Shown here one piece after another: positions 3,164-39,496 of a stretch of 64,000 bases of DNA. How positions within the stretch are numbered: the stretch's first letter is position 1; every line of letters starts with the position of its first letter. The notes under the pieces are model-generated. The model was given only the letters and a program-made list of their open reading frames with translations. It did no database searches and was not told where the DNA came from. The position numbers and the translations under genes were made by a program. The DNA comes from an uncultured Nitrososphaerota archaeon (GTDB taxonomy: Archaea; Thermoproteota; Nitrososphaeria; Nitrososphaerales; Gagatemarchaeaceae), in the NCBI GenBank assembly GCA_963718895.1, contig CAVRAG010000007.1, positions 736,001 to 800,000 of the forward strand, written 5' to 3'.

Positions 3164-3446
3164 CTAGTTGCCCCCGTCCGGTCGAGGACGAGGACCGAGA
3201 TGCCCCCGATCGCGGTGAGCTCCTTGGCGATGACCATGCCCGTCACGGTCTTCCCGCTGCCGGTCCTCCCGAAGATGCACATGTGGTGGTTCAGGCTGTC
3301 CGCGGGATGGTGACGAGCCGGTCTTCTCGATGGTCGCGCTGGAGCTTGTAGACGGATGCGTCTCCCAGCGCGTCAACCCTGCGACCGAGGCGGATCTCTC
3401 TTCGCGGGGTTTGAGCGTCCCTCGATGGCTGGTCCGCGGTGGTCAT
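3164..3446 (-). pseudogene. Truncated HerA/DUF87 ATPase (N-terminal fragment, paralogue of 22760-24269)
   Basis: MTTADQP..REIRLGRRVDA..HHMCIFGRTGSGKT..ISVLVLDRTG, after which homology stops abruptly; ~400 aa are missing. Confidence 0.8.
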
Positions 3447-3458
3447 AGCTGGCTCGGC

Positions 3459-3762
3459 TCACAGAAGCGCCGGGAAGAAGCAGAAGACCAGCACCATGAC
3501 CCAGATGAACGCCGCGAACCCCACGTTCGGCCAGAACTCGGGCTTTGAGACCTTGTGGTCGAACATCGCCCCTCCCGCGATTATCCCCGTGAAGCCCCCT
3601 GCGTAGGAGATGCCGAAGAGGGCGCGCTCGCTGATCCTGTTCAGGCCCACCTCGGCAGATGCCTTGTCGACCCCCATCGCCCCCAGCCCGAGGGCGGACA
3701 GCGCCCCGAGGTAGCCGAATAGAGCGTGCGGCGGGAAGATCGCGGCAGGCTATCGCGGCCAT
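3459..3762 (-). CDS. DUF1294-family membrane protein, copy 1 (one frameshift)
   Basis: MGVDK..A....RISERAL..I...GG..G...G...F.HK..K pattern. Confidence 0.8.
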
Positions 3763-3771
3763 ACGGTTCCC

Positions 3772-3972
3772 CTACTCGACCCTGCAGACCGGGATGTCTC
3801 CCTCGTGAATCTCCGCCTTGCACTCGGGACAGACGAGCTCCTTGAAGAAGCGGCCCACCCTCTTGGGGCAGCTGTCGCAGTACGGCTTGCGGCAGCCTGG
3901 GCACTGCCACGCGATCCTGCCGCTGAACCCGCCGACCTCCTTGTTGCAGCAGAAGCAGAACCCTCGCACCAA
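3772..3972 (-). CDS. Small 4xCxxC double zinc finger (FYVE-like spacing), copy 1
   Basis: CFCC..CPGC..CDSC..CPEC; close paralogues at 7723 and 24608. Confidence 0.85.
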   Translation of the reverse strand: MVRGFCFCCNKEVGGFSGRIAWQCPGCRKPYCDSCPKRVGRFFKELVCPECKAEIHEGDIPVCRVE

Positions 3973-4013
3973 TTCAGTATCTCACCATCGCACCCGACAA
4001 AAGCGCCCAAGTG

Positions 4014-4352
4014 TCAAGGTGGCGAGATGGTAGGAAGGTAAGGGAACAAGGTATAGGACAGGATCATCAGGATGATGCCCCCAATGAGCATCCCCTCCCC
4101 CGTCCGCCTCCACACGTGCCCCCAGTACAGGATGGCCCCTAGGGGGATCAGCAGGATGCCTGCGTAGAAGGCGACCAGGGTCGCGGCCGCGTCGATGCCC
4201 GTCACCGCGACGTGGAACTCTGCGGCGAACTGTTGCGCAAAATTCCCGACGGTCGGGCCGATGTTGGGGAGCGACTGTAGGCTCGAAGCCGAAGAGGTGG
4301 TTGCCGATGAAACTATCGATGAGGTAGCCGACGCGGTATCGTTGAGGCTCAT
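4014..4352 (-). CDS. Two-TM small membrane protein, VirB2/TrbC/CedA-type pilin-like
   Basis: Ser/Thr-rich leader and amphipathic helix, then TM-(WRRTG)-TM hairpin GILLIPLGAILYW..RR.G..MLIGGIIL. Confidence 0.55.
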   Translation of the reverse strand: MSLNDTASATSSIVSSATTSSASSLQSLPNIGPTVGNFAQQFAAEFHVAVTGIDAAATLVAFYAGILLIPLGAILYWGHVWRRTGEGMLIGGIILMILSYTLFPYLPTISPP

Positions 4353-4519
4353 CGACCTAGGAGGTTGGCGGGATTAATAAGCGGCAACCACACCGATCTT
4401 GCTTCTCAGCCATAGGTCCGCTCGGACGAGCCGCAAGCGGTCCACGGCCAAGTCCCTGTCGTTAACTTTACACGCTTGACCCATTGACAATTTTCCACCC
4501 ATCAAGAAGGACATGGTGG

Positions 4520-5392
4520 CTATCGACGGAAGTCATCAAGGGAGCTGCCGGCACCCGGAACAACCTTCTGGCGGACCTCGGCGCGTGGCTCCATCCCGTA
4601 CCTTCGGATTAGGCTCGAGAGCCTCTCCTGAAGCTCCTCCCAGCCGGCGATGGCCGCCGCGAACTTGATCCCCGCCGAGTCTTCGAACATCTTCTTCGAC
4701 TCCTCGTAGCCGGCGAACCTCAGGAGACCGAACCGGACCGTGGAGACTCCTGCGCTCTTCAGATCCTCGAAGAGCCTCTCGAGGTCGACCATCACGATTC
4801 CAGGGATGACAGGCGCCAGGGAGACCCAGGTCGGTATCCCGGCTCCGGCGAGCCTCCTCAGGGTCTCTATCCTCCTCCGGAGAGGGGGGACGCCCGGCTC
4901 GAACTGCCTGACCGGAACGGTAGTTATGGACATCCCCACCTCGACGTCCTCGAACCTCTTGAGCAGCTCAAGGTCCCTGAGGACGAGCGGCGACCGGGTC
5001 AGAATGGAGATAGGGAAACGGTGCCTGAGGAGCGAACGGATGCACTGCTTGGTCAGACCGTACTTCGCCTCGACCGGCTGGTAAGGGTCCGACGCGCTCG
5101 AGAGGAAGACGGTCTCCCGCCTCAGTCCCCTGAGCTCCCTCTCAAGGACCTGCGGCGCGTTCACCTTCACGTCGACGTAGCTCCCCCACCCCCTCTCATC
5201 GTGGATGAGCGACGGGGCGTAGCAGTAGGTGCATCCGTGCGTGCACCCCCTGTAGAGGTTGGCGGTGTATTCAGTCGCCGACCCGTAGTTCATCTTGTGC
5301 AGCAGAGTACTGCACCTGACCTCCCTGACCGTGACCCTGGCCTTCGACCGGGTTGGAGGCGGCGTGGGCGTCTGGAGCGAGGTCGCGAGCAA
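4520..5392 (-). CDS. Radical SAM protein, SPL/Rv2578c-like
   Basis: NLYRGCTHGCTYCYA (CxxxCxxC), SDPYQPVE, ILTRSPLVLRD motifs. Confidence 0.9.
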   Translation of the reverse strand: MLATSLQTPTPPPTRSKARVTVREVRCSTLLHKMNYGSATEYTANLYRGCTHGCTYCYAPSLIHDERGWGSYVDVKVNAPQVLERELRGLRRETVFLSSASDPYQPVEAKYGLTKQCIRSLLRHRFPISILTRSPLVLRDLELLKRFEDVEVGMSITTVPVRQFEPGVPPLRRRIETLRRLAGAGIPTWVSLAPVIPGIVMVDLERLFEDLKSAGVSTVRFGLLRFAGYEESKKMFEDSAGIKFAAAIAGWEELQERLSSLIRRYGMEPRAEVRQKVVPGAGSSLDDFRR

Positions 5393-5513
5393 AGGGAGAC
5401 CGCGGGAGCGTTCCGAGAATAAAAGGGGTCGAGTCGCCGAGGCTTGAACCGGGAGCAGGGGAGACTGAAAGTGTCATCCGAGGAGCGTGCCCTGACGGTG
5501 ATGTTAGTTAGGA

Positions 5514-7049
5514 TCACACGGCAGCCGAAGCGAGCAGGGCGCGGAAACTAGCTGGTCTAGACAGACCGGCGGGGAGCGGGTTTCCGGACTCGTCGCGCGG
5601 CCGGTCGGCCGTCGAATACGCAGGGCCGGCCCACGTGCCCTTCCCTATGTTATCGAGGGACTGGACCAAAAGGAACAGGGAGAGCCCCTTGCCAGTGGTG
5701 TCCGTGAAGGAAGGAGTCGGGCCCAGGATGCCTCCCCCAATCTGACCCAGAACCCTGCACAGTTCCCGCGCAGACCAATCCCCGGTCGCGGCGGTCCCAT
5801 CCCCAAGCCGCACCTCCGGGTATGAGGGCGCGTTCTTGGCTCCCTGGGGCACGCTCGTGATTATCTTGCGCAGGTTTTGCAGGGACGACCACACCTTGTC
5901 GTAGCCGTTGAAGATGTAGAGCGCCTTCCATCGCGCCATACGCCCCAGCGTCAACCTGGCCCGAAGCCACGGGTTCACCCAGTTGCCGAAGGTGAACTCC
6001 CTCAGGTACGGATATGGGTCGGAGGTCAGGACCAGGTCTATGCCCTCCGTGTCTATCATGTCGATCAGGTACGAGGGCGCGGCCATCCAGGAGAGCGAAA
6101 GGTCGGTCCACTCCGAGGGTTGAGGGCGATAGGCGCCGTACGGCGGGTATTCGTCGACGACGCCGTAGACGCCGTTCCACTGGGTCCCTGCCGTCGGCAG
6201 GGCGGGGCCGTCGGGGCTCACGGTGGCAAACTGCGGCATCGACGCCGGGCCGATCTGCGGGTCGTTGATGATGGGCTGCACCGCATCGCTGGCCGCGCCG
6301 AGTTTCCCTGCGTTCAGCCCGCGCTGGAAGATGTAGAACGTCAGGTACCCCAGGGAGTCGGCGGCGCTCGGCAGGTCGCTCTTCACGATTCCGTGGACGC
6401 TCTGGGTGTAGAGCGAATAGAGGAAGTTCGCATGCCCTATGAAGTCGTCGTTGTACTGCGACAGGAAGGTGCTGAACGTGGGCTGCTTGGGGTCGATGAA
6501 GTTGACCAGGCTCTGAAGCGTCAGGTACGATTGAATCGCGAGCGACAGGTATGGACGGAAGGTGCGCGGGTCCGCGACCGTGGGGATACCTGTGGGGGCT
6601 GCAATGCTTTGAGCCTGCGGAAGCTTCCCATACCACAACTGCGTGTATGGCGGGGCGGTCTGGGGGGCATTCGGAGGGATGTTCGTGAGGCCCTCGTCCC
6701 CGTATGGATAGAGGGTGGCATACCATATCTTGCTGTAGGGTGAGAATCTCAGCTCTTGGAGGTCCGGCCGCTGCCAGAAGGCGCCCCAACTATCGGGAGG
6801 GATGAGGTTGTCCGGTCCCGCGGCCGCCGAAGGGACCAGGTTGCCCACGAATCCATTCGCATTGTCGTGATACTTCGCCGCGTCCCTCGTGACGTAGTTT
6901 CCCCTGGTCCCCTGGGCGCCCAGGTCGTCGAAATCGGTTTGCAGGCCTCTCCGCCGCCCGGCTAAAGCGTCCTCCCGTCGCTCTGTACCGGCTCCACCAG
7001 GAAGCGCGGACAGAACGAGAGCGACTGGCCTCTGATGCGGCCCTGACAC
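5514..7049 (-). CDS. Hypothetical protein, possibly the C-terminal part of a larger protein
   Basis: 511-aa ORF with protein-like composition after ~residue 35; no family recognised. Confidence 0.6.
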   Translation of the reverse strand: MSGPHQRPVALVLSALPGGAGTERREDALAGRRRGLQTDFDDLGAQGTRGNYVTRDAAKYHDNANGFVGNLVPSAAAGPDNLIPPDSWGAFWQRPDLQELRFSPYSKIWYATLYPYGDEGLTNIPPNAPQTAPPYTQLWYGKLPQAQSIAAPTGIPTVADPRTFRPYLSLAIQSYLTLQSLVNFIDPKQPTFSTFLSQYNDDFIGHANFLYSLYTQSVHGIVKSDLPSAADSLGYLTFYIFQRGLNAGKLGAASDAVQPIINDPQIGPASMPQFATVSPDGPALPTAGTQWNGVYGVVDEYPPYGAYRPQPSEWTDLSLSWMAAPSYLIDMIDTEGIDLVLTSDPYPYLREFTFGNWVNPWLRARLTLGRMARWKALYIFNGYDKVWSSLQNLRKIITSVPQGAKNAPSYPEVRLGDGTAATGDWSARELCRVLGQIGGGILGPTPSFTDTTGKGLSLFLLVQSLDNIGKGTWAGPAYSTADRPRDESGNPLPAGLSRPASFRALLASAAV

Positions 7050-7050
7050 C

Positions 7051-7395
7051 CTAACTTATCAGGACAATGTGCTTCCCGCGCTCGAGTCCCTCTGCTTTTT
7101 GCATGCACTCCTCCTCGGTGAAGCAGACCTCGATGTGTGGGGCGTGAATCTTCGCTATCTCTCGAATCTCTGCCTGTTCCAGCCCGCTGGTCACCAGGAA
7201 TCGGAGGTACGCCACGTCGTGCTTCATGGCGTCCTCTTCGTTGCTCAAGAACTCAAAAATGGGGGCTCCTGAGGTAAAAAGCCTTCCTCGGCCTAACGTA
7301 TGCCATCGACAGTTGTCGAACCAGCGGCCCGCGCGTATCTCCCTCCGGACGGGGTTCTTCGGCGGCTCTTCGAATCGGTTGTCCAAGCGCGCCAC
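7051..7395 (-). CDS. Hypothetical protein
   Basis: 114-aa ORF tightly coupled downstream of DUF1294 copy 2, in the position HerA occupies in the other copies. Confidence 0.5.
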   Translation of the reverse strand: MARLDNRFEEPPKNPVRREIRAGRWFDNCRWHTLGRGRLFTSGAPIFEFLSNEEDAMKHDVAYLRFLVTSGLEQAEIREIAKIHAPHIEVCFTEEECMQKAEGLERGKHIVLIS

Positions 7396-7398
7396 TGC

Positions 7399-7709
7399 TC
7401 AGAACGAGACGACCCACGGGAAGAAGTAGAAGGCGAGGAACGCGCCCAGAGCGCCCAGGCTACCCCTACCGGGAACCAGAAGCCGGGCTTCGAGGTCTTG
7501 TGATTGAAGAAGAGCCCCCCGAGCGTTATGCCCGCGAACCCTCCGAGAAGGGCGATGAAGGCGAGGCTCTGTTCGCTCATCCTGTCCAACCCGATCTTGG
7601 CCGCAACCTTGTCGGCGAGCATGGCGCCACCACCGACAAAGGTCATGACGAGGAGCACGTCCTCGAGGACCTGCGGGGAGATCACGGAAGCCAGGTTGGC
7701 GGCAGGCAT
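7399..7709 (-). CDS. DUF1294-family membrane protein, copy 2 (frameshift near 3' end)
   Basis: MLADK..A.IG.DRMSEQSL..GG..G..LGG.FFNHKT.K; the shifted frame ends FYFFPWVVSF* at 7399. Confidence 0.8.
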
Positions 7710-7722
7710 AGGTGTTGACCCC

Positions 7723-7926
7723 CTAGGTGATCTTTGGCACCGGGATGCCGCCCTCGTGCATCTCTATCCGGCACTCGGGGCAGACGAGCTTCTTGAAGAA
7801 CCGGCCCACCTTCTTCTTGGGACAGGTGTCGCAGTAGAGCTTGCGGCAGGACGGGCACTGCCATGCGATCCTCCCGCGGAACCCGCCGACCGCCCTGTTG
7901 CACTGGATACAGTAGCCTCGGACCAA
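7723..7926 (-). CDS. Small 4xCxxC zinc finger, copy 2
   Basis: MVRGYCIQC..CPSC..CDTC..CPEC; TTAAAT box on the minus strand at 7951-7956. Confidence 0.85.
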   Translation of the reverse strand: MVRGYCIQCNRAVGGFRGRIAWQCPSCRKLYCDTCPKKKVGRFFKKLVCPECRIEMHEGGIPVPKIT

Positions 7927-7978
7927 AGCACCATAGAATTCTGAAGGATGATTTAACCCCCAAGCAACCAGGCGATTG

Positions 7979-8194
7979 TCAGACAGCTTTCAGAAGCTTA
8001 GCCTTCACGTCCGGTTTTGTTTCCCTTGGAAGCAAGAGTTCCAGGTCCAGCAGTTCTCCCTTCGCGTCCTCGTCCAGGATCACGTTCTCCGCGAGCGGCT
8101 CGCTGGAGGACACCTTCCCTCTTCTCAGCCGCAGGTAGAGGGCACCCGCCTCTTCATCAAATTCCAGTGGAGCCATACCTTTTTGCGCCCTCAT
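7979..8194 (-). CDS. DUF2283-family putative antitoxin
   Basis: FDEEAGALYLRL...VILDED..G.LL.LE signature. Confidence 0.8.
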   Translation of the reverse strand: MRAQKGMAPLEFDEEAGALYLRLRRGKVSSSEPLAENVILDEDAKGELLDLELLLPRETKPDVKAKLLKAV

Positions 8195-8408
8195 TGTCAG
8201 CTTTCAGAGCCGTTATCACTATTAAGCCTTCATCACTCTCCTCGATGATCACGATGGTGAAGCTGCCATCCAAACGAGACGCGCACGAGGCCTTCCTTCC
8301 CTGCTTTGTGTATCTCGCTTCGAGAGGACGCACGATTGCTTCCCCGACTTCCATCTTGGTTACTCCGCGCTCCAACATCCTCTTCTCGGCGTGAGGGGTG
8401 TACCTCAT
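8157..8408 (-). CDS. DUF4258-family (RelE-like) putative toxin
   Basis: MRYTPHAEKRMLERGV...IVITA signature; overlaps the DUF2283 gene. Confidence 0.8.
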   Translation of the reverse strand: MRYTPHAEKRMLERGVTKMEVGEAIVRPLEARYTKQGRKASCASRLDGSFTIVIIEESDEGLIVITALKADNEGAKRYGSTGI

Positions 8409-8463
8409 CGGTCACAGCTCGAAACCTCATTGGCCCCTAAAACCGTCATTGCAATGAGGAGAC

Positions 8464-8557
8464 GCCCAAAGACGCGCAAATGACTCTCCCGCCCTAAACG
8501 AGAGACGATACACAGGAATTACCTGCGCCGCAAGACATGACCACGAGCGCAGGGGTC
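8464..8557 (+). ncRNA. Dispersed structured RNA element, copy A (5' domain only)
   Basis: Shares ATGACTCTC..GAGACGATACACAGGAATTACCTG..CACGAGCGCA.GGGTC with copy E; CTAAAA box at 8437. Confidence 0.6.
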
Positions 8558-8813
8558 CTTCACTGAACCCACCCCGACACGCCTGTTGCGCTGGGAGCAA
8601 GCCTCTGACCAAACCAAGATGGAATCTTGAGGCGCAATTCAACCGCAAACCGGCGGAGCATCGTGGGACGATCTCTCCACCCTGGTTTGTCAGCGATGAC
8701 GAGAGGTCCCTTGAGCCGGGATACCCACTATCTTCTCTCCGAGTTTGGTCAGGACGAGCACGCCTAGCTCATCATTCGGCTCAGCGCGGTCCTCCGCCGA
8801 ATCGCGCTTTGGC

Positions 8814-9671
8814 TCAGGTCCTCTGCCCGGAAGGAGGCCGCCAGTCGCTGCATCTGGGGCATATCAGGAAGAACTTCGATCCGCTGACGATCTTGAACGA
8901 TGGAGCGCTGCATGTCGGGCATTGGGCCTCTTCCTCCTTCCAGTGCACCTCGAGGCCACGTTCCTTGAGCCAGTCAACGACCGAGAGCACCGTTGGGTCG
9001 GTCAGCATCTCGACGGGTAAGTCTTCGTAGTACTCGACCGCCAGCTTCAGCCTCTCGAACTGGCTCGGAGAGATTTGCCCGTTGAGCGAGTGCCTTGCGA
9101 AGACCGCCGTAAGGCGCTTCCGCTCATCCCCGTCCGCGAGCTTCGTGTCGACGCCGGAGAGCAGGACAATGCACACGAGCGAAACAGCGGCGATGAGCCC
9201 GTAAGGGCTCTGGAGAAACAGTATTGGCAGTCCGACGTAAGGGATGGTGACGGCCGGCACGCCCAGGACGCTGGTCGAGTCTGTGACGAACGGGTCCGGG
9301 GACAGGTTGTTGTCTCCCTTCGTATCGTAGTACGTCACCCCGTTGGCCTCCTGACCGACCCCCACGACCCTGTGGATCACGACAGGCTTCAGGAACGAGT
9401 CGAGGGCCGGAATCCCAGATGAACCCTGAACGAAGACGATGATGCTGCCGTTCGCGATCTGTCCCCGCGGGGCGGTGAAGAAGATGAGCTCACCGTTCTG
9501 GAGCTTGGGGTACATGCTGTTCCCCTGTACGATAGCGACCGGATAGGTGGTCGTCCCGGCGATGAACGGAAGTGCGGCGAGAGTGACAAGTAGGCCGAGA
9601 CTGAGCATGAACAGCAAGCGCCGTTTGTCGAATTTCATTTCCAAAGTCTCCGTTGTGACCATTCTTCTCAT
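8814..9671 (-). CDS. Signal peptidase I (S26, SipW/Sec11-like) with C-terminal Zn-ribbon extension
   Basis: GNSMYP (catalytic Ser), VIHRV (His), TKGDNN..PD, IPYVG; C-terminal CPTC..CPRC. Confidence 0.9.
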   Translation of the reverse strand: MRRMVTTETLEMKFDKRRLLFMLSLGLLVTLAALPFIAGTTTYPVAIVQGNSMYPKLQNGELIFFTAPRGQIANGSIIVFVQGSSGIPALDSFLKPVVIHRVVGVGQEANGVTYYDTKGDNNLSPDPFVTDSTSVLGVPAVTIPYVGLPILFLQSPYGLIAAVSLVCIVLLSGVDTKLADGDERKRLTAVFARHSLNGQISPSQFERLKLAVEYYEDLPVEMLTDPTVLSVVDWLKERGLEVHWKEEEAQCPTCSAPSFKIVSGSKFFLICPRCSDWRPPSGQRT

Positions 9672-11617: not shown

Positions 11618-11651
11618 CCGATCACCCCTGGGCTCACTTCCCGGCCCGCTC

Positions 11652-12164
11652 CTAGGCGACCGTTATCTGGACCGCCGCGGGGGCCGTCCACGTCACTGCG
11701 CCCGTGTCCCAGAGGACGGTCATCGTCTGTCCGTTCACGATTGAAGCCGGGCTCGTGAACTGGAAGGTGTAGAGGGTGCTCGTGACGCCGCTGACGGCGG
11801 TGCTCGTGACTGTGATTGTGTAGAGGTAGCTCGTCGCCGCGCCCGTCTGGATCGTTATCGTCCAGGCCACTTCCCAGTCGCCCGCCACGAGAGCGTTCAC
11901 GTACGTCGGGGCCAGGTTAGCCCACGCAAGCCCGCTGACCGATGCAGATTGGGGGGCCTCGACGACGTTGTAGCTGATCGCGGAGGCGAGGAAGTAGCCG
12001 TTGTCGACGACGTACTCTCCTTGGTATCCCACGTTGTTGCTGGTGTTGATGGTCACCGATGCCGCGTAAGCGCCTATGGAGCCGACCATGATGAGTGAGA
12101 GAACGAAGAGGTAGACCAGCCTGACGCTCCTGTGCATGAAAGGTACCTTGATGAATCTCGTCAT
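11652..12164 (-). CDS. Secreted 170-aa filament/pilin-like subunit, paralogue 2
   Basis: Signal peptide ending IGAYAA; beta-rich; highly similar to 12189-12701. Confidence 0.8.
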   Translation of the reverse strand: MTRFIKVPFMHRSVRLVYLFVLSLIMVGSIGAYAASVTINTSNNVGYQGEYVVDNGYFLASAISYNVVEAPQSASVSGLAWANLAPTYVNALVAGDWEVAWTITIQTGAATSYLYTITVTSTAVSGVTSTLYTFQFTSPASIVNGQTMTVLWDTGAVTWTAPAAVQITVA

Positions 12165-12188
12165 CTCCCCAAGACCTCCTCCAAGCTC

Positions 12189-12701
12189 CTAGGCAACCGC
12201 CACTTGAACCGCGGCCGGGGCCGTCCATGTCACAGCTCCCGTGTCCCAGAGAATCGTCATCGTCTGCGTGGGGGTTATCGTCGCGAGGGTCGTGAACTGG
12301 AACTGGTACAACTGAGTGGTCGTTCCAGTGGCTGAAGTGCTGGTCACGGTGATAATGTACGTGTGGCTGGGTGTCGCTCCCGCGTTGAGCGTGATGGTCC
12401 AGAGGACCTCCCAGTCGCCTGGTACAAGGGCGTTCACGTAGGCCGTGCCACTGGGCGCCCATGTCATTGGCTGGGTCGTCAGCGCCTGCGCGCCCTCGAC
12501 GACGTTGTAGGTAATGGCAGAGGCGGTGAAGTAGCCGTTGTCGACGACGTACTCTCCTTGGTATCCCGCGTTGTTGCTAGTGTTGATGGTCACCGATGCC
12601 GCGTAAGCGCCAATCGATCCGATGAGTATGAGCGAAAAGACAGCCACATAGAGCAGCCTTATGCTCCTTCTGACGAAAGGAATCCTTATCATCTTTGCCA
12701 T
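12189..12701 (-). CDS. Secreted 170-aa filament/pilin-like subunit, paralogue 1
   Basis: Same architecture; first gene of an operon that ends in the S26 peptidase. Confidence 0.8.
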   Translation of the reverse strand: MAKMIRIPFVRRSIRLLYVAVFSLILIGSIGAYAASVTINTSNNAGYQGEYVVDNGYFTASAITYNVVEGAQALTTQPMTWAPSGTAYVNALVPGDWEVLWTITLNAGATPSHTYIITVTSTSATGTTTQLYQFQFTTLATITPTQTMTILWDTGAVTWTAPAAVQVAVA

Positions 12702-12889
12702 GATTCTCTCACTTTCTCCTGATGTTTTTTCTTGTGTTATGAGCAGGGGTTACGATTCCCGTCTGATAACCAGAACAGTTTGGCGGGTGAACCCGATATA
12801 AAGTCGTCTAAAAATATCCCAAAAGTCCACCATGTTATCAATTTCTCTTAACATTTCGTCGTTTGAGCCCGTTCGGTTCGTTAGTCCGC

Positions 12890-13896: not shown

Positions 13897-14115
13897 ACCC
13901 GATTGCGCGGACATGAGTCTCCTCCTCGAACTGGAGATGAGCACAGGAATTACCTGAGCCGCAAAAACGTGATCGCGAGCGCAAGGGTCTTCCACGGCGA
14001 GGCGGCCAACGGGTCGAAGAGGAAGACATCACGTCCTCTGACTTTCAAGCGAATGCCGTCCCCGTGTATCGGGAGGGCCAACGAGCGAATGTCTCTTGAG
14101 CAGGCGGACGAACAA
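13897..14115 (+). ncRNA. Dispersed structured RNA element, copy B
   Basis: Near-identical core to copies C and E; TTAAAT box at 13870. Confidence 0.7.
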
Positions 14116-16026: not shown

Positions 16027-16250
16027 ACCTGATTGCGCGAAGATGAGTCTCCGGCCTTGAACTGGAGATGAGCACAGGAATTACCTGAGCCGCAAAAACG
16101 TGGTCACGAGCGCAAGGGTCTTCCACGGCGAGGCGGCCAACGGGTCGAAGAGGAAGACATCACGTTCTTTGACATTCCAGCGAACGCCGTCGTGGTGAAA
16201 TCCCGGGAGGACGAACAAGCGCATGTCTGCCTAGACATGCAGACAAACTA
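16027..16250 (+). ncRNA. Dispersed structured RNA element, copy C (weak similarity may extend to ~16392)
   Basis: Near-identical core to copies B and E; TTAAAA box at 15998. Confidence 0.7.
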
Positions 16251-16654
16251 GCGAAGAAGATCAGTCACAGCACACCGAAATCAGGAACCGCTCGGCAGGG
16301 CATCCTATCTTCTGGTAGGGCGCCTCATGATATCCACCGGCCATCCGATTCGGGAAGTGCCAGCCGACGCCTGAGGCGGATCTTGAGCTGAAGCTTCGCT
16401 TCCAGGCTGTCACGATTCAGCTGGTAGAGGAGCCCCCGGACGACCTGTGGCTATCGCGATGCCAGATTCTCCAGCCTTTGAAGGACAGGGTGCAGCCTTC
16501 CCTTGAGCTTGATCGAGCTCGCTTTCTCCGCACTTTGCTGTCACCTATCGCGGCAAAGACTTGTCAGACTTGAGGAGGACCCGGGTTGCCGACAATCTCC
16601 AAACTGCGCTGGGAGGCAATGTTAAAGACACCAGTTTCTCCACACCCAATCAGA

Positions 16655-17443
16655 ATGATTGTCCCGAACAGGTTCAAGGACACCGTGGTGCTGATTACGG
16701 GTGCGGGGTCAGGGATAGGTCGCGGAATAGCCTCCAGGTTCGCTGCGGAGGGAGCAAGCGTTGTACTCGTGGATATCCGGGAAGAGGCCGCAAACGCCGT
16801 CTTGAGTGAGATACAGTCGCGAGGCGGCATCGGCATGGTCATCAAAGCGAACGCCACGTTGCCGAGCGACGTTAACCGCGCGGTGGAGGCAGTGATTGAA
16901 AGGTTCGGAAGGATAGACGTACTCGTGAACAACGTGGGTCTGTTCGTACTGAAACCAATCATGGAGATGTCAGACGCAGACTGGGAGCCGATGATGGACA
17001 TCAATGCAAAATCCACCTTCCTGTGGTCCAAGACCGCGGCCAAATCGATGAAAGAGGCCAAGCATGGCTGCATTGTCAACATCGCCTCAGGGTCCGGCAA
17101 AGTTGGGGACCCATATTCTGGCGTCTACGTGGCGGCGAAGCACGCCGTCATCGGGCTCACGAAGAACCTTGCGCTGGAGCTGGCACCATTTGGCGTACGG
17201 GTCAACGCTGTATGCCCGGTCGACACAGACACGCCAATGCAGAAGAAGTTCTTGGAACAGCTCGGCGCGAGGGTCGGCAAGTCGCCGGACGAGCTGAGAC
17301 AAGAGACGATGCACAACATACCACTGGGCAGGCTGGCGACCCCAGAAGACATCGCGGGAACGGTTACATTTCTTGCGTCTGACGACGCGAACTACATAAC
17401 GGGACAGTCGATCAACGTCAACGGCGGATGGCTGATGCTCTAG
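16655..17443 (+). CDS. Short-chain dehydrogenase/reductase
   Basis: TGAGSGIG, LVNNVG, YVAAK, GQSINVNGG. Confidence 0.92.
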   Translation: MIVPNRFKDTVVLITGAGSGIGRGIASRFAAEGASVVLVDIREEAANAVLSEIQSRGGIGMVIKANATLPSDVNRAVEAVIERFGRIDVLVNNVGLFVLKPIMEMSDADWEPMMDINAKSTFLWSKTAAKSMKEAKHGCIVNIASGSGKVGDPYSGVYVAAKHAVIGLTKNLALELAPFGVRVNAVCPVDTDTPMQKKFLEQLGARVGKSPDELRQETMHNIPLGRLATPEDIAGTVTFLASDDANYITGQSINVNGGWLML

Positions 17444-18583
17444 CAGCGGCGCCGGCCAGCGCCGAGGTCAGCCGCTCGATGATGACTGAGACGTCCACCT
17501 CACTGAGACACTGCGGGTTGATGAAGATCGCTCTTCCGATAGAGTAGAGTTTGATGGGCGGGTCGCCGCTCTCGAGTACTCGAACTAGCTCCTCGACGGG
17601 GACGGAATACGGATCCTGTTCGACCTTGATTCGGGGGATGGTCAGCGGTCTTATCGTGTCTTCCGGGCCCGGCATTACCCTCTTCACGTTCAGGTGCGGC
17701 AGCTTTGACAGGCCGTCCACGAGAGAGTCGATGATCCTCTCGCATCTCTCCAGCCTCTCCTTGCTTCTCGCAGGATAGGTTCTCAGGGCGACGATCAGGG
17801 CCGCGATGTCCTCCTTGCTCGTCTTCATCGGCCGCCCAAGGAAATACGTGCGTTGCCCGTTGACGGTCGCGGAGTAGTACGGTCCAAGAGAGAAGCACGC
17901 GTCCACCAGGCTCTTCCTGCCGCAGACGAACCCCGTGTCACTCGGACCTCCAATGTCCTTCCCCCCGCTGAATACCACCAGGTCTGAACCCAGCGAGATG
18001 TACCGCCGGAGGTTCTCCGCCGGAGGGAGCTCGGCGGCCGCATCTACTATGACCGGTACGCCGCGAGAGTGCGCAAGTTCGATGACCCGGTTCAGCGGCA
18101 CCACGGATTGTTGAGGGCCGAAGTCGATGTACAGGATTGCCGCCGTATCAGTCCCTATCGCCGCTTGCAGCTCTTCCTCGGTCGTTCCTTGGGGACTTCC
18201 CACATAGACTGTCCGGCCTCCCGCAATCTTGACGAGCGTGGTGTAGACGCTCCTGTGCGGCGCCTGGACCAAGACTCGCAACGTAGGCCTTCGTTTTCCG
18301 GCAGCATGCTGGCAACCTCGAGGTCCCCCCTGGAGATACAGGCGACGACCGACATCATCAGGCCGGCGGCCGCGCCCGAGACGACGTATGCGGATTCCGC
18401 GCCTGTGATCCCGGCTATGACTTCACCTGCCTTCCTCTGGAGCTCATCCATGAATACGAATGACAGGGCGGCTTCCCTCATCGCCTGCGTCACTTCTGGG
18501 TCGAGCGTGTTGCCACCCAACGACGTCAGAGTTCCGGAGCCGTTGATGACCTTCCTCACTCCCAGCTTCTCGTAGACGTCCAT
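17418..18583 (-). CDS. SelA-like PLP enzyme (DgaE-like ammonia-lyase family), one frameshift
   Basis: MDVYEKLGVRKVINGSGTLTSLGG; VSGAAAGL; VDAAAE; FSGGKDIGGP. Confidence 0.85.
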
Positions 18584-18672
18584 TGTCCTGTCCCGCCGGT
18601 CAACATCGATACTTATGCCTGTTTCGACGGGCGGGCTCCTGCACTTATAATGAGAGCTGTGCGCTCCTCCGC

Positions 18673-19480
18673 ATGGGAATCTCGAAGAAGGTAGCCCTCG
18701 TCACGGGGGCGGCGTCCGGGATTGGTGAAGGAATAGCTCTCCATCTCGCAAGAGAGGGCGCCTCGGTCATAGTGGCAGACGTGGACGAGGTCAAGGGCGA
18801 GAGAGTCGCCGCACGAATCTCGAAGGGGAAGGGCGATGCCGTCTTCATCAGAGTGGATGTCTCCAATCAGGGTGAGGTCAAGGCGGCGCTTGCGAAGTGC
18901 AGGAAGAAGTTCGGCGGCCTCGACATCCTCGTAAACAACGCCGGCATCAACGTGGGCTTGAGCAGCGGTCCGAATCCTACAGGGTGCCCGAAGAGATATG
19001 GATCGTACCATCGATACCAACCTGAAGGGAACGTTCCTCTGCACAAAGTATTCTGTGCCGCTCATGAGGAAGAGGCAAGGCGGGTCGATAATCAACATAT
19101 CTTCGATGCTGGGGCTCTACGCCATCCCAGGGGCGTCCTCTACTGCGCCTCCAAGGGAGGATCATATCGCTCACGCGGGCGACAGCCATGGACTCCGCGA
19201 GGTTCAAGATAAGGGCAAACTGCATCTGCCCTGGTGCGATCAAGACGCCGGCCTTCGGAAGGGCGTTCACCGACCCCACCGAGCTGCGCCGTCTCTTTGC
19301 GATCTATGAGAAAGGGTATCCGGCCAAGCGCATAGGGGAACCAAAGGACATCGCGTCTTTGGTGGCCTATCTGGCGGATGAGGCCTCCTCGTTCATCACT
19401 GGGTCCGTCATAACAATCGACGGCGGCATGCACGCCCAGTACGGCGAAGCGCTGCTGAAGATGAGGATTGACGGGATAAT
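18673..19480 (+). CDS. Short-chain dehydrogenase/reductase (frameshifted; 3' end approximate)
   Basis: TGAASGIG, NNAG, YCASKGG, ICPG, ITGSVITIDGG spread over three frames. Confidence 0.85.
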
Positions 19481-20553
19481 CTATCGCTCTCGCTGCCCGG
19501 ATGGAGCCACTTGTACTTGTACTCCTGACCGCTCATCGAGGATTTCTGCACTAGGAGGCCGAGGAGCTCAACGAGGTTGGCGTGCTGCGTCATGGGCACG
19601 TCGTCCGCTCCCGGGTCGAGCAGGCCGGGACCGCCGTTTATGGCACCCGCCGCGGCGCAGTAGGCCTGCGTCTGCAACTCAATCTGTCTGTCGTGCAAGA
19701 CCGCGGGTTTCTGCAGCAGCGCCGAAAGGCAGGCCTCTATGCCGTAGGCGCCCCAGTTCGAGATCGTCGCGGTGACCAGCACCTCCGTCGCGATGTTGGA
19801 GGCCGAGCCTCCCTGGCAAGGGCACTTGCACTCCCCCGAGAACGGGACGTACTTCAGGACCGAGTCTCTTATGAGACCACAACCTAGCTCGTTCCCCCCA
19901 TCCCCTATCCCGATAGTCAGCGTGCCCTGAGCCGTAGCCGAGAGAAACATGCTGTCGGGTTTGGCGAGGTACTTTGAGATGTTTATCCCAGTCAGCCCGT
20001 GATATTCGCCCTTGACGTTCTGCGACGGTCTCTCAATCGCAATGAGCGCGGAGGGGTTGAGTTCCTTAAGCATTCGTTCCCCGGCGGCGGCCGCCTGGTT
20101 GGATTCCGTAGTGAATTCGACGATAGATGCGAGTCTCGGAAGCCTCAGCACCTCGTCTATAGAGCCCACGTTCAGACCCGAGCCAGCGAGTGCGGCCTTG
20201 GTTATCCCCACGTTGAAAGAATCCGTCACAAGCACCACCTTGGCGTCCAGCCCGAGTACCAGGGCGCGCGCAAGGGTCGCTGCGCCGACGGGGCCATCCT
20301 GCTCTCCGACGGTGAACCACGGCGGACAGGCGAACCCAGTCGTGATTATCACCACATCATTCGCCTTGACACATTGCGCCAGCCGTTGGGCCGCGAGCAT
20401 CGTAATCGGAAAGTTACCCTGCTTCTCCCTCGCCGCACCATAGAGTTTGTCGATAACGCCGCGGCACGAGATGTCCGCTGTGATCAGTCGATCGACGGTA
20501 TTGCCCAGCACCTGGTGGTGTTGCGACACGGAGTGGGAATCGCTTTGGTCCAT
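19480..20553 (-). CDS. D-glutamate cyclase-like (DUF4392) protein (3' end approximate)
   Basis: TTGF, EQDGP.GA, IAIERP, IGIGDGGNELG, ISNWGAYG motifs. Confidence 0.82.
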
Positions 20554-20621
20554 CTTGATCTCCACCTCACGGCCTCTTCCATCTCGCAACATCAACCTTT
20601 GGTCCGAGGTCGAGTGCCCTT

Positions 20622-22530
20622 CTATCCGAATGTGACGGTATTGAAGAGCGGGGAGGTGTCCGCGCCCTGGAGCATCGGGTCTAGGTAGAAGTTCTTGACT
20701 ACGCCTGTCTTCCAGACGAGTGAACCGCTTCCCTGCCAGAGTTTCACGACGGCCACCCACGCGTATGGGGCATCTGCGTTGATCTGCTCTTGCGCCTTGG
20801 TGCAGAGCGCGGCTATCTGGGTCTGGTTCGCGTCCGTGGTGAAGGCGTTCACGCAGGCCTGGACGGTTGGAGTGGAGTAGGCCGCAAAATCTCCATAGAG
20901 TGAGCTGTTGCTGACAAAGGATATCCAGTCATCCGCCGGGGTCAGCGCGTTCAGCGTCCACGTGGGAGCCCCGTTCAAGATGTTAATCTGCCCAATCTCC
21001 TGGGCGTTCTGAACGTTTGTGGTGTAGCTGCCGAAGAGCGAGGTGTACTCGCCGAAGGTCTCAGTGACGATGTTGGTTTGTATCCCTATGTTGGAAAGGT
21101 CCCCCTGGGATCAGCTGCGCCTCATCGGTGCACGAACCGCAGTTCGCAAGTATCCTGATGGCGAGCGTGGGCATTGTCTTTACGTCAGCGGCCGCAAGGT
21201 AGTGCTGCGCCAGCGTCACGTTGTAGGAGTATGGTTGCGCACCACCCAGGTCGTAGAAACTCCCGAAGAGCGGAGCCTCCGGACCGACGAATTGCGACCC
21301 TTGTCCGAGCCAGACCTTCTGGATTATCTGGCTGTAGTTGATCGTGCTGGACTATTGCGAGTCTCACATCTGTGATATTGGTAGGATAGCTCTGCGTATT
21401 CAGGTCGACGAAGTTGACCTGGGCTCCGAGCCCGCTCGTCGCGACGTAGGAGTACTCGTTAGGGTTCGCGTCACAAGGTTCCAGTCCTGCGCCATTATCA
21501 TAGCAACCTGCGCCGTCCCTGTGCTGAGGTCTGTGTATCGTGTGACATCATCGGGCTTGTAGTTTATGACGACGTTCTTGACGTGGCCCGGATCGAACAT
21601 GGGCTGCGCTGCTATCTGCGCTGGTGTGAGGCTGTCCCCCCAGTATGTCGGATTCTGCGCGAAGGTCACGAAATTATTCTCAGACACCTGTGTGACGACG
21701 TACGGGCCTGTACCGGGGATTGGATGCTGGTTGAAAGCCGTGTTGTAGTTTCCTGGTGTACCGAAGCCACCATTGTTGAGTACGTACTGCGCGTCAAAGA
21801 CCTGACTCATCCAGGGCACCAGCAGTCCGAGGAACCACTGGAAGGGTGCTTGCAGGTGGAAGACTATCTGGTTGGGACCGGTAACATAAATCGGCCAATG
21901 GTTGTTCTCCATCACGCTCAGGGCCGCCGACGAGGGCGAGGAGAGTCCTGACTTCGTCAGAGTTGAGAGCGTCGACGAACCGAAGTTCACGCTACTCATG
22001 TTGAAGACATCGTAGGAGTTGAACCAGGAGGAGGCATTCCCGGATACGTAGTAGAGCCCGTAGAGTTCAGCCCATACCTGATATGCGTTGAAGGGGTCAC
22101 CATTGGAGAAGGTCACTCCTTGCCTCAGATTGAGGGTGTAGGTCTGTCCGCCGTCCGAGACGGTCCAGTTGTCGGCCAGGCCAGGCATGTATTGGATACT
22201 ACCAGTCTGGTACTCGGCCGTGAGGTTGACAGCGACTAGCGGCTGGTACACAGTGATTTCCTGCCAGTCAGGATAAGGCGCCAAGTTGACTGTGTCAAGC
22301 GCGTTCAGGTCGCCAGTCGGCCAAATCCAGTCGTCAATGGTGAGCGTCTGTGGCGCAGACGCGCTAGAGCTGCTCGAGGCTCCCTGGGAAGATGAGGAAG
22401 GGGACGAAGATGGACTCGACAGCGAGGCAGCGTAATAGATACCGACCGCGGCTACTACAATTATGACAATGAGGGCCAGTGCAATCATCGCTCGGCCCAC
22501 GGCGATTCGACTTTCGGACCCAGCAATCAA
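20622..22530 (-). CDS. ABC transporter peptide-binding protein (SBP family 5), frameshifted
   Basis: N-terminal TM plus Ser linker; PGLA.NW.VS.G..YT..LR.GV.FS.G.PF.A; GTGPY. Confidence 0.85.
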
Positions 22531-22759
22531 ACGGCCTGGACTTTGGCCATTGTGTCTTAAGTCTTTCGAGAAAGCAGTCTGCGAAGCACTTTCGACAGGG
22601 TCATAATCACGAAATCGGCAGCCAAGAAACCTTGGATGCTCACTTAGTCTAGGCTTGCGGGGACCCAGAGGACCTCAACTTCAGGGTCGTTCCGTTTGGA
22701 GCGGAGACCGGTTCGGGACATCAAATGATGACGCATTGAGGCTCCAGACTCCTCGACGG

Positions 22760-24269
22760 TCAATCACGGGCTGCGGATACGACGGCGATCTTCTCTCCGA
22801 GCTTCGTGAGAACGAGAAGGCTCCCCGACATCTCAGCTATTGCAAAGCTACCATGTACCATCTGCTTCAACCGTTTGTTGGAGTAACCCTGCTGGGAGAG
22901 CCTCTTCCTCGGGACCTTGCCTCCTGAATTGTGGATGAGCTTGGCCGTGTCCCTAGCCCAGGCCGGCAATTTGTCGTAGACCTTCCAGGCCGAATCACCG
23001 TCAGGAACCCCTTCCAGTGAGATTGGAGGTGTTTTCGGACTCCCTACTATTGGGTGATTCTGATTTGGCAGATTTTGCGTCGGGGCGAATAGGAAACTGT
23101 GCTCCGGGAGGCCCACCATGCACCCCACCGGAATGTCAGTACTGGCGTCGTTGAGCTGGACCAGGCACTCTCCCACCTCCAGCTTGCGAAGGTCTGATGC
23201 GAACTTGTCCGCCTCCAACCTGCTCACCATGTAGTTCAGCGCGAGGTCGACGTCCTTGCCGCTGGTCATCGAGTGGCAGACTATGGTGTTCGAGTTGGAG
23301 ATGATGTCCTCGCTGACTTGTGTCGGCCGCGTTGCCATGACGACCAGCCCCATCCCGTACTTCCTCAGCTCGGTGGCGTACCTCTCGAGGATCCCCTCGT
23401 AGTCTCGCCTGGCGGGAGCAATGTGGTGCGCCTCGTCGACCATGAGCACGAACCTGAGCGCCTTGGTCCACCCGAGCCTCTTGCCGCGGGTGATGAGGAG
23501 CTTGCAGAGGACCTGGGAGACCATGTTCCTCGCCTCGTCGGACTCCAGCGGGCCGAGGTTGACGATGCGCAGGCCCGGCGCGAAGAGCTCGGACTCGTCC
23601 AGCGGTGGCGCGTCGGTGTCGAAGACCCGCGCCAGGGAGCCGCTCGCCAGCGGCCTGAGCCGGGAGACCACAGCCTCGTTCCCCTCGAGCCAGCCCTTGA
23701 CCTTGGTCCGGGACTCCTCGCCCTGCGCCCTGAGCTCCGAGAGGACATCGGAGAGCCGGGAGGTGTCGGCCCCGTAGCAAGACTTCAGGGCCTCGCCGAG
23801 GGCGCGCTCCTGGTACGGGGTGAAGGTGATGCCCCTGAAGGAGCTGCCGACGTAGTGGTGCATCAGGGATATGGCGCGCTCGACGTCGTCGTCGCTGTTG
23901 TCGGACCTGCGGGCGAACGGGGAGAGCGTGAGGTTGGTCCCGGGCGTGTAGACGGTCGCGCTCGGGAGAGAGGCTAGTGGTGAATGGGCGAACTCGCCGG
24001 TCCGGTCGAGGACGAGGACCGAGATGCCGTTCATCGCGGTCGAGCTCCCTGGCAATCACCATGCCCGTACCGCTCTTGCCGCTGCCGGTCCTGCCGAAGA
24101 TGCACATGTGGCGGGTGAGGCTGTCGACGGGGATGGTAACCGGGGGTCTCTCCGGCGATTGCCCGCGTTGAAGACCGTAGGTGGATGCGTCTCCTGGCGC
24201 GTCGACGCGACAACCGAGGCGGATCTCACGTCTCCCGGCGGGCGGCGATTGCTGATTCTGAAGGGGCAT
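22760..24269 (-). CDS. HerA/DUF87-family ATPase with C-terminal wHTH-like tail (frameshift near 24040)
   Basis: Walker A HMCIFGRTGSGKS, VLDRTGEF, Walker B MVDEAHH, ELRKYG motif. Confidence 0.85.
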
Positions 24270-24285
24270 GGAGACTGGCTCACTC

Positions 24286-24603
24286 TCAGAGGTTCACGAC
24301 ACCGGGGAAGAAGTAGAGCACGAGGAACGTGAGCCAGAGCAGGCCCGATGCGCATATCGTGACCCAGAAGTATGCCTTGGTGGTCTTGTGGTGGAAGAAG
24401 AGCCCGCCGAGTATCACGCCTGCGACCCCGCCGGCGAGGGCGATGTGCGCGAGGCTGCGCTCGCTTATCCTGTCGAACCCGATTCGGGCGGAAGTCTTGT
24501 CGGCGAGCATGGCGGCTCCGCCGAGTAGGCTCCAGACCAGGAACCACTCACCGAGAAGCCGCTCGGGGATCATGGAAGCGAGGTTGACGGGGAGCATTGC
24601 CAT
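24286..24603 (-). CDS. DUF1294-family membrane protein, copy 3
   Basis: MLADK..RISERSL..GG..G..LGG.FFHHKT.K. Confidence 0.85.
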   Translation of the reverse strand: MAMLPVNLASMIPERLLGEWFLVWSLLGGAAMLADKTSARIGFDRISERSLAHIALAGGVAGVILGGLFFHHKTTKAYFWVTICASGLLWLTFLVLYFFPGVVNL

Positions 24604-24607
24604 CGCC

Positions 24608-24811
24608 CTAGGCGGTCTTGGGGACCGGGATGCCGCCTTCGTGCATCTCTATCCGGCACTCGGGACAGACGAGCTTCTTGAATAAGCGCCCCACCTTCTT
24701 CTTAGGGCAGGTGTCGCAGTAGAGCTTCCGGCAGCTAGGACACTGCCAAGCGATCCTCCCGCGAAACCCGCCGACCTCCTTGTTGCACTGGATGCAGAAT
24801 CCTCGGACTAA
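24608..24811 (-). CDS. Small 4xCxxC zinc finger, copy 3 (start reads TTA instead of TTG)
   Basis: Manual translation xVRGFCIQCNKEVGGFRGRIAWQCPSCRKLYCDTCPKKKVGRLFKKLVCPEC..; same 204-nt length as copy 2; TTAAAT box at 24836-24841. Confidence 0.8.
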   Translation of the reverse strand, partial: LVRGFCIQCNKEVGGFRGRIAWQCPSCRKLYCDTCPKKKVGRLFKKLVCPECRIEMHEGGIPVPKTA

Positions 24812-39476: not shown

Positions 39477-39496
39477 GAGTGACGGATGGTTTGTGT

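Follow-up and report, generated by a model that had tools for sequence, protein, structure and literature searches.

Modular cassettes of a putative small zinc finger and a compact HerA-clade ATPase in soil Nitrososphaerales

Ring ATPases of the HerA type scaffold several antiviral systems as well as the import of DNA in archaea, and it is the partner protein that sets the task of the motor. To our knowledge, very few defence or DNA-transfer systems have been described in the Nitrososphaerales, an order abundant in soil. Here we analyse a gene cassette that is found three times in a 64,000-nt stretch of DNA from an uncultured Nitrososphaerota archaeon (GCA_963718895.1, contig CAVRAG010000007.1), in which the gene of a small protein with four CxxC pairs, hereafter the finger, is followed by genes for a DUF1294 protein and a HerA-like ATPase. 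The whole stretch is referred to as the window (contig C7:736001-800000), and the assembly it belongs to was obtained from a metagenome, comprises 3.13 Mb in 11 contigs and is 80.5% complete. Relatives, by the names they bear, place the host among the Nitrososphaerales (Thaumarchaeota) of soil and peat.

FtsK, a motor of the same ATPase superfamily, carries behind its motor a gamma winged helix that could read DNA. Among cysteine-rich domains, FYVE is defined by its phosphoinositide-binding motifs WxxD, R(R/K)HHCR and RVC. We know of no function for the DUF1294 family, of which fusions to a cold-shock domain are common in bacteria. Literature searches on DUF1294, on HerA with zinc and defence in Nitrososphaer-, and on thaumarchaeal integrated elements with HerA or VirB4 returned no description of the cassette. 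As to systems that have been described, MAD7-MAD8 is an ATPase-nuclease module required for MADS defence, according to the part of PMC13662399 that deals with it, while the domain make-up of CedB and CedD, as set out in the relevant text of PMC11868833, includes a transmembrane helix and a VirB4-like N-terminal domain. A further protein of relevance here is aS34, presented in the corresponding part of PMC11698992 as a RING-like two-zinc protein of the Saccharolobus 30S subunit.

The finger, the ATPase and their membrane partners

The original prediction treated the three genes as an operon whose gene neighbourhood should be conserved. This was analysed in a set of 26 loci anchored on the ATPase and drawn from public genome and metagenome contigs (numbered L028 and so on), a Prevotella row with a weak 45-residue match having been dropped beforehand. 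Where the 5' end of the ATPase gene was included, in 19 loci, a finger gene preceded it on the same strand in 16. The three loci without a finger were L037 and L049, with less than 100 nt of upstream DNA, and L051, which encodes a short, distant paralogue (38-44% identical). The 16 finger-ATPase loci are related rather than independent, and ATPase identity divides them into about five lineages. Four of the 16 loci (L028, L032, L035 and L038), with an ATPase 80-90% identical, have DUF1294 between finger and ATPase. The same place is taken by an unrelated protein with four transmembrane (TM) segments in L039 and by a decaying non-membrane open reading frame (ORF) in the L029 type, and holds nothing in L040, L042 and L045; membrane partners are missing from the L030, L040, L042 and L045 types. 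Finger-DUF1294 pairs without the ATPase were also found, at four loci (L061-L064) in three genomes of the genus. Thus, while the trio recurs outside the window only in close relatives, the wider unit is the pair of finger and ATPase, and the 'operon of three' is, from these gene orders, better described as a modular cassette of which the finger appears to be the only constant member. It combines modularly with a compact ATPase of the HerA/FtsK superfamily and with small membrane proteins (a DUF1294 paralogue, a 2-TM and a 4-TM protein).

The finger was detected in 19 of the 22 other genomes of the same genus, but in none of the 18 that represent other genera. In a sample of 201 genomes spanning the order, members of the close ATPase family (E < 1e-90) turned up in four, which all belong to one family. 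This distribution points to a cassette that is accessory, patchy and lineage-restricted in soil Nitrososphaerales.

The window protein of 66-67 aa had been predicted to contain four CxxC pairs, and this was borne out, with the eight cysteines, two glycines, one tryptophan and one proline invariant in all 22 aligned members of the family. Family proteins are 66-71 aa long and basic, with an isoelectric point (pI) of 8.4-9.6. A profile search of 1.84 billion cluster representatives returned 57 at E <= 1e-3, mostly standalone proteins of 55-120 aa, and those homologues that are named in their sources are all called 'hypothetical protein'. The protein had also been likened to the FYVE finger, and this part of the prediction stood only for the cysteine spacing. 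The best full-length match of the finger profile among solved chains was the FYVE domain of EEA1 (E 5.9e-4), with all four cysteine pairs aligned, and the FYVE domain of RUFY1 matched a narrower profile at E 0.06. However, Pfam matches (C1, B-box, IBR, FYVE_2) all remained under cut-off, FYVE_2 reaching 14.3 and 13.7 bits against 27.2, and RING, C2H2 and ribosomal zinc proteins scored about as well as FYVE against the finger profiles; the sequence matches are therefore a similarity of pattern and not membership. At the places of WxxD, R(R/K)HHCR and RVC the finger alignments hold other residues, which agrees with the predicted lack of the RHHCR lipid-binding motif and extends it to the other two.

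The fold of the finger was compared with Foldseek and a second structure aligner using an AlphaFold2 (AF2) model that is itself weak, with a predicted local distance difference test score (pLDDT) of 66.8, and that was built without zinc. The nearest solved chain to this model was aS34 (Z 6.3, root-mean-square deviation 1.8 Å over 53 residues, 26% identity), the next row having Z 4.8. RING, U-box and ZZ domains matched the same low-scoring model with Z 3.5-4.8, TRIM69 RING giving a Foldseek E of 0.018, and no row named as a FYVE domain was present among the matches listed. The finger is thus probably a two-zinc protein of the cross-brace type (FYVE/RING/ZZ) with FYVE-like spacing. That it is not a lipid-binding FYVE domain stands as the conclusion from the alignments, which give no sign of lipid binding.

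Within its clade the finger is under purifying selection, with a ratio of nonsynonymous to synonymous substitution (dN/dS) of 0.07-0.4. In 14 of 17 loci of the cassette type, a TTAAAT box or its TTTT(A/G)T variant starts 30 nt 5' of the start codon. By the usual archaeal promoter geometry a box at this distance implies a leaderless TTG mRNA, and the finger is probably expressed in this way, TTG-initiated and from its own TATA-like box. In addition to the cassette fingers there is a core paralogue, which forms a clade of its own and occupies a conserved synteny of major facilitator superfamily (MFS) transporter, finger, PDCD5-like gene and PAC2 at five loci in five genomes of the genus (L004, L016, L017, L026 and L027). 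It has a Gly/Ser-rich tail, and in the host genome it lies at C7:567259-567414 (L004). One finger homologue, P0076, extends to 455 aa through an apparent intein with a homing-endonuclease-like insert between cysteine pairs 2 and 3; an intein is unusual for a protein of 60 aa and may be a sign that the core paralogue matters to the cell.

Sixty-six relatives of the cassette ATPase were found, and the few source names that bear a taxon are Nitrososphaerales or Thaumarchaeota. DUF87, the HerA central domain, was recognised around Walker A in the remnant of copy 1 (30.2 bits) and in the N-terminal piece of copy 3 (32.9 bits) against a cut-off of 23.2. The family profile aligned to Sulfolobus solfataricus HerA (4d2i) with E 1.1e-18 over chain residues 130-474. 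Since this alignment begins at residue 130 and only about 45 residues precede Walker A in the cassette ATPase, the HAS barrel is missing. The Walker A (GxxGxGK) and Walker B (DE) columns were invariant in 11 of 11 full-length members. The top PADLOC rows were HerA (72.9-77.9 bits) and mad8, the latter model, which is without a curated cut-off, being covered at positions 18-286 of 314 (E 1.7e-20). In NCBIfam, CedD was the top row for three family members, at 77-100.5 bits against a cut-off of 600, the matches of 96.9-100.5 bits covering only model positions 213-516, and HerA models gave 41-71 bits against cut-offs of 800-970.

The last 86 residues of the ATPase (22763-23020, minus strand, in copy 3) were modelled as a winged helix of topology H-S-H-H-S-S (AF2 pLDDT 90.6) with a pI of 9.9. 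Winged-helix DNA binders led the VIA-align structure matches of this domain, with TubR at Z 9.4 and the MarR family at Z 8-9 among the 50 best rows listed, and the top Foldseek matches were MarR-like (probability 1.0) and viral winged-helix proteins. Shorter ATPase paralogues of about 380-410 aa are without it. By sequence and model, the cassette ATPase is thus best regarded as a compact protein of the HerA clade, with no HAS barrel, a catalytically competent-looking core and a basic C-terminal winged helix, and the winged helix as modelled supports the handling of DNA by this ATPase.

Other ATPases of this kind were observed in the host genome and in L032. Two paralogues of 406 and 379 aa (C8:879198-880418 and C8:893387-894526; 35-38% identical) have neither winged helix nor finger and sit, as judged by eye, by PIN-like and HicAB-like genes, with an N-terminal remnant at 881541-881765. 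The window itself encodes a different HerA/DUF87-type ATPase of 874 aa (33043-35667, minus strand), upstream of which lies a 281-aa ORF of no family (35660-36505, minus strand), and in L032 a second HerA-like gene, of 581 aa, is located 3 kb from the cassette.

The DUF1294 assignment (Pfam PF06961, cut-off 25 bits) held for all three copies in the window, which scored 54.8, 48.8 and 46.5 bits. In a scan of the host genome, all three DUF1294 genes detected were these cassette copies. Of 81 genomes examined in the family, 46 contained a better-scoring, standalone DUF1294, and standalone genes were also found in the Bacillus, Lactococcus and Methanosarcina controls. Among the 30 top-scoring DUF1294 loci in the family, only one had a finger within 1.5 kb. 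A search for fusions of DUF1294 with the finger returned four close relatives, too few to bear on fusions. These genes offer a first genomic handle on DUF1294, in the form of a divergent paralogue tied to a finger of seemingly nucleic-acid type.

A second small membrane protein, c20, is encoded at 4014-4352 (minus strand), 41 nt 5' of finger copy 1; it has 112 aa and two hydrophobic segments (2-TM) and no Pfam or NCBIfam match. Clustering placed c20 5' of the finger in copy 1 and in L032, L035 and L039, and tblastn located it 3' of DUF1294 in L063 and, further away, in L062. Its look-alikes in the Atlas were a TrbC/VirB2 pilin cluster and DUF3852 with a score of 0.83, which is below 0.9 and was taken as a lead only.

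State and surroundings of the three copies

Open reading frame lists, repeat families and DNA alignment agreed with the prediction of three copies with a common gene order, all on the minus strand in the order finger, DUF1294, HerA-like gene (3172-3972, 7315-7926 and 22760-24811). Repeat finding and a four-way DNA alignment traced the homology among them from about 40 nt 5' of the finger gene into the ATPase gene, which is full-length in copy 3 only.

In copy 1 the finger gene (3772-3972, minus strand) encodes 66 aa with four CxxC pairs from a TTG start. It is followed by a DUF1294 gene (3459-3762, minus strand; the copy with 46.5 bits) of what we call type A, orthologous to the genes of L028, L032 and L035, which, compared with the L028 orthologue, shows a gap of 2 nt close to codon 6 and has its domain in frame at 3459-3677. 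The HerA-like gene was correctly predicted to be cut just past Walker A: the remnant (3172-3428, minus strand) keeps about residues 2-95, Walker A included, was found by tblastn in two frames, being frameshifted before Walker A, and abuts with its 3' end a luciferase-like oxidoreductase gene (2125-3111).

Copy 2 consists of a finger gene (7723-7926, minus strand; 67 aa, TTG start, TTAAAT box at -30), a DUF1294 gene of type B (7399-7709, minus strand; 48.8 bits), in which a 1-nt gap near 7440 leaves the last helix out of frame as assembled, and an ATPase remnant. Here the HerA gene had been thought to be replaced by an unrelated ORF. Most of the 114-aa ORF in question (7051-7395) is indeed unrelated, and family scans gave no match for it beyond the ATPase codons; however, its first 25 codons or so (7315-7395, minus strand) are the N-terminus of the ATPase. 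The last codons of another ATPase gene were recognised by repeat and translation at 8730-8763 (minus strand), 5' of the copy-2 region, and a further C-terminal ATPase piece lies 6.5 kb before the window. Partial finger and ATPase remnants likewise lie 5' of intact cassettes in L032, L035, L029, L041, L044 and L045, as in the window.

Copy 3 had been predicted to be complete, and all three genes are present, the ATPase at full length (22760-24269, minus strand), with Walker A near 24090 and Walker B after it. Its DUF1294 gene (24286-24603, minus strand; 54.8 bits) is intact and encodes 105 aa with three hydrophobic segments. As assembled, however, the ATPase gene contains one extra base at about 24041, just past Walker A, and the resulting +1 frameshift splits the product into 76 and 431 aa. 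Moreover, the finger gene (24611-24811, minus strand; 67 codons, TTAAAT box intact) has a TTA start, where TTG is found in copies 1 and 2 and in 15 of 20 other complete finger-gene loci, the other five having ATG or GTG. Contigs of four soil-metagenome runs from one study were compared over 22600-25000, at a depth of about 2 and with 24706-24867, which includes the finger start, uncovered. Two short-read contigs, from two runs of this study, were without the extra base, with one substitution close by also differing, and two contigs had T>C at 24330 in DUF1294. In the contig variant the ATPase is one open frame of 502 aa, and intact relatives have 490-526 aa. The split in copy 3 thus reflects either an error of assembly or a difference between strains, and the cassette may be intact in the population.

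Split genes were also seen for a short-chain dehydrogenase in the window (two ORFs; 18583-19775) and for an MFS transporter (L004 1-1164). As these suggest indel errors in the assembly, the small indels in copies 1 and 2 are no proof of decay. The two HerA truncations in these copies, on the other hand, are structural. Indel errors would also fit the completeness of 80.5% despite only 11 contigs.

Relative to copy 3, the finger is 91% identical in copy 2 and 78% in copy 1, and DUF1294 is 55% and 42% identical, respectively. The finger copies have a synonymous divergence (dS) of about 0.5, with dN/dS of 0.09 between copies 2 and 3 and of 0.3-0.4 between copy 1 and the others. DUF1294 falls into type A (copy 1 with L028, L032 and L035) and type B (copies 2 and 3); dN/dS was 0.09 for type A, copy 1 against L028, and 0.68 for type B, copy 2 against copy 3. 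These values indicate old paralogues, neither chance resemblances nor recent duplicates.

The DNA around the copies is variable. Directly 5' of finger copy 2, Pfam identified a DUF4258/DUF2283 pair of the toxin-antitoxin type (7979-8408, minus strand), and the same pair is upstream in L035. Copy 3 is preceded by an 87-aa ORF and an OLD/GajA-type ATPase-Toprim nuclease gene (24863-26921, minus strand) with a G+C content of 0.50-0.53 against 0.60. HicB is also encoded in the window and Fic in L032, and L063 and L064 contain ORFs that by eye only are HicAB-like, methyltransferase-like and SLATT-like. Housekeeping genes, for peptidases and permeases, flank the cassettes of the L029 type. A scan of ORFs around the cassettes, not an exhaustive one, revealed no gene for an integrase, a capsid, a relaxase or replication. 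The window contains no tRNA gene by tRNA scan, and therefore no tRNA-type integration site, and no Rfam match at gathering score.

A conserved non-coding element of about 80 nt occurs at 8428-8511 (minus strand), 27034-27117 and about 39480-39560, with a near-identical core of about 45 nt. These three copies were the only matches in the genome to a 24-nt core with up to 3 mismatches. Finger copies 2 and 3 are each preceded by cargo (toxin-antitoxin and OLD genes, respectively), with one of the first two element copies upstream of it; the third element copy sits between grpE and a dnaK-like gene. By eye, one apparent stem can be made out in the element, in which U-G is replaced by C-A in the third copy.

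Further features of the window were recorded. The region around the third element copy (37804-41146) contains a fragment of Hsp70 together with grpE and a 451-aa ORF that has a LAGLIDADG-like domain, and may represent a dnaK gene that carries an intein or is disrupted in some other way. At 27838-29343 a unit of about 654-664 nt is repeated three times in tandem (71-75% identical), mostly within a 525-aa ORF (28153-29730) with no Pfam family. Two adjacent, paralogous 170-aa ORFs of no family (11652-12164 and 12189-12701) lie within 11648-12701; their DNA is 72-83% identical at a spacing of 537 nt. A 137-nt direct repeat, 94% identical, is present at 13924-14060 and 16055-16191, 2.1 kb apart. 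Between 44000 and 50000 the G+C content is 0.43-0.47 against about 0.60, which suggests foreign DNA, and a gene of archaeal ATPase_2/STAND-like type is located at 43992-45038.

Possible roles of the cassette

We tentatively read the cassette as a conflict module, which could serve in antiviral or anti-plasmid defence or in addiction and which lies in what looks like variable, defence-island-like DNA. Membrane DNA translocation or defence, as originally predicted, is still the right pair of options, and it is the genomic context that favours defence or conflict. In such a module, the ATPase ring would bind DNA via its winged helix and pump or remodel it, the finger might dock on the ATPase in place of the missing N-terminal domain and so act as an adaptor, sensor or regulator, and the membrane proteins could anchor the complex or serve as effectors. 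The genes, their domains, the linkage, the patchy distribution and the neighbourhood are observed, while binding between the parts, DNA pumping and any protective effect are inferred. A complex prediction for ATPase and finger gave a score of 0.00, which is evidence neither way. If the two do act together, the finger would represent a new type of adaptor for HerA biology in the Nitrososphaerales.

Several observations weigh against a conflict module. No recognised effector, such as a nuclease or Sir2, is present in the cassette; the PADLOC models are without a curated cut-off and their match is to a generic ATPase core, and NCBIfam ranks the DNA-import ATPase CedD first, though far below 600. 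Most genomes of the genus also encode standalone core paralogues of both the finger and DUF1294, so that parts of the cassette may have ordinary cellular roles. The defence-island context is circumstantial, the low-G+C OLD region having probably been acquired separately, and the neighbours of the short ATPase paralogues and of L063 and L064 were named by eye only.

The CedD match raises the question of whether the cassette could instead be a minimal membrane DNA translocation machine, similar to Ced or type IV secretion, with c20 as a VirB2/CedA1-like pilin or channel, DUF1294 as a platform, the finger as an adaptor and the ATPase as a pump. CedD is the best row for three family members, which align to the ATPase part of its model, and the part of PMC11868833 on these proteins gives CedB and CedD as HerA-clade ATPases essential for DNA import. 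In several lineages the finger has small membrane proteins next to it that are unrelated to each other (DUF1294, c20 and, in L039, the 4-TM protein), the look-alikes of c20 include the TrbC/VirB2 cluster and DUF3852, and a winged helix would suit DNA loading. However, the CedD scores are far under their cut-off and the cassette ATPase has neither the transmembrane nor the N-terminal domain by which CedB and CedD are defined, no polytopic channel protein like VirB6 or CedA is encoded in the cassette, four types (L030, L040, L042 and L045) have no membrane partners, the Atlas score of 0.83 is below 0.9, the distribution is patchy and copies decay; we therefore regard such a machine as rather unlikely. 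In its most explicit form, c20, finger, DUF1294 and ATPase would make up a minimal apparatus for DNA uptake or export in soil Thaumarchaeota that follows the Ced/type IV principle with unrelated parts, the finger replacing the membrane-docking N-terminal domain of CedB, CedD and VirB4; this would provide a first function for DUF1294, and seems quite improbable. The cassettes could also be envisaged as relics of integrated mobile elements (plasmid or virus), in which the ATPase would have served element segregation or packaging and the finger repeats would mark successive integrations or recombination at a finger gene. The remnants upstream of intact cassettes would fit this, as would the 80-nt element that brackets variable cargo upstream of copies 2 and 3. 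Here the relevant text of PMC4158269 describes HerA-like helicases as one of the commonest families in archaeal 'dark matter islands' and suggests them to be viral DNA-pumping ATPases, and a thaumarchaeal element is reported, in the corresponding part of PMC6563490, to have as its integration site the 3' end of a conserved Nitrososphaera Zn-finger gene, a possible parallel. Yet the non-exhaustive ORF scan gave no integrase, capsid, relaxase or replication gene, the window is free of tRNA genes, and the copies, at a dS of about 0.5 and under purifying selection, are old paralogues and not att-type duplications, which makes this origin unlikely.

The finger-DUF1294 pairs at L061-L064, standing without the ATPase, would also fit a toxin-antitoxin-like pair of DNA-binding regulator or antitoxin and membrane toxin, with the ATPase a separate gene that is often co-located. 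A gap of 7-14 nt separates the two genes, of which the one for the small basic protein comes first, other toxin-antitoxin pairs (some of them named by eye) are found alongside, and the copies are multiple and decaying. Nevertheless, this is highly improbable. The standalone DUF1294 is kept by 46 of 81 family genomes and also by Bacillus, Lactococcus and Methanosarcina, which argues against intrinsic toxicity, and 12 of the 16 loci keep finger and ATPase together without DUF1294. A housekeeping role taken over from the core paralogue, for instance as a ribosome-associated, RING-like finger comparable to aS34, would agree with the best structural match (Z 6.3), with the conserved synteny of the core paralogue and with the homologue interrupted by an intein. 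However, the match depends on a model with a pLDDT of only 66.8, and aS34 gave E-values of 0.0026, 0.059 and 0.71 with three profiles, no better than unrelated zinc fingers. Furthermore, the cassette copies are accessory and patchy, and aS34 itself is reported from four orders of Thermoprotei only in the part of PMC11698992 that deals with its distribution. Such a role therefore appears very remote.

Comparison with described systems

Compared with the FYVE domains of EEA1 (1hyi) and RUFY1 (2yw8) and with Pfam FYVE_2 (PF02318), the finger has the same four CxxC pairs in the same order, with similar spacing and of similar size. In contrast to FYVE it is without the phosphoinositide motifs, remains under the Pfam cut-off and is archaeal, standalone and basic. 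The better fold match was to aS34 (9fhl chain a), an archaeal RING-like two-zinc protein of about 70 aa by the description in PMC11698992; its similarity to the finger in sequence appears not to be significant, and its range as reported in that part of the paper excludes Nitrososphaerota. RING, U-box and ZZ domains resemble the finger by the fold matches given above, to a model of low confidence. As for the membrane partner, the cassette DUF1294 proteins are divergent, low-scoring paralogues when compared with the product of the standalone PF06961 gene.

With regard to the ATPase, CedD and CedB of the Sulfolobales share with the cassette a HerA-clade ATPase domain and an association with small membrane proteins. 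Unlike them, the cassette ATPase has neither a transmembrane helix nor a VirB4-like N-terminal domain, scores one sixth of the CedD cut-off and is not accompanied by a CedA-like channel gene. By these defining domains, as far as they can be read from the sequence, the cassette is not a Ced system. FtsK belongs to a different clade of the superfamily, and neither a membrane domain nor a linker is present in the cassette ATPase. The fold matches listed for the winged helix do not include FtsK gamma, without thereby excluding it.

Parallels are also found among HerA proteins with dedicated partners. The HerA of HerA-NurA (4d2i) and those of the anti-phage systems Sir2-HerA and DUF4297-HerA have a common core with the cassette ATPase and a Walker A context typical of DUF87, whereas the latter is without the HAS barrel and has an additional C-terminal winged helix. 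There is no NurA, Sir2 or DUF4297 partner in the cassette, and no NurA nuclease among the neighbours scanned in the window and loci. MAD8 is likewise a compact HerA-like protein of similar core length, and the mad8 model is mostly covered by the cassette ATPase. However, a mad1-mad7 set is absent, the OLD gene giving only a generic mad3 match, the partner is a zinc finger and not a nuclease, and MADS is bacterial. By analogy, the cassette would work in the manner of the HerA-partner modules Sir2-HerA, DUF4297-HerA and MAD7-MAD8, while it appears to be a member of none of them, differing in its partner, in the HAS barrel and in the winged helix.

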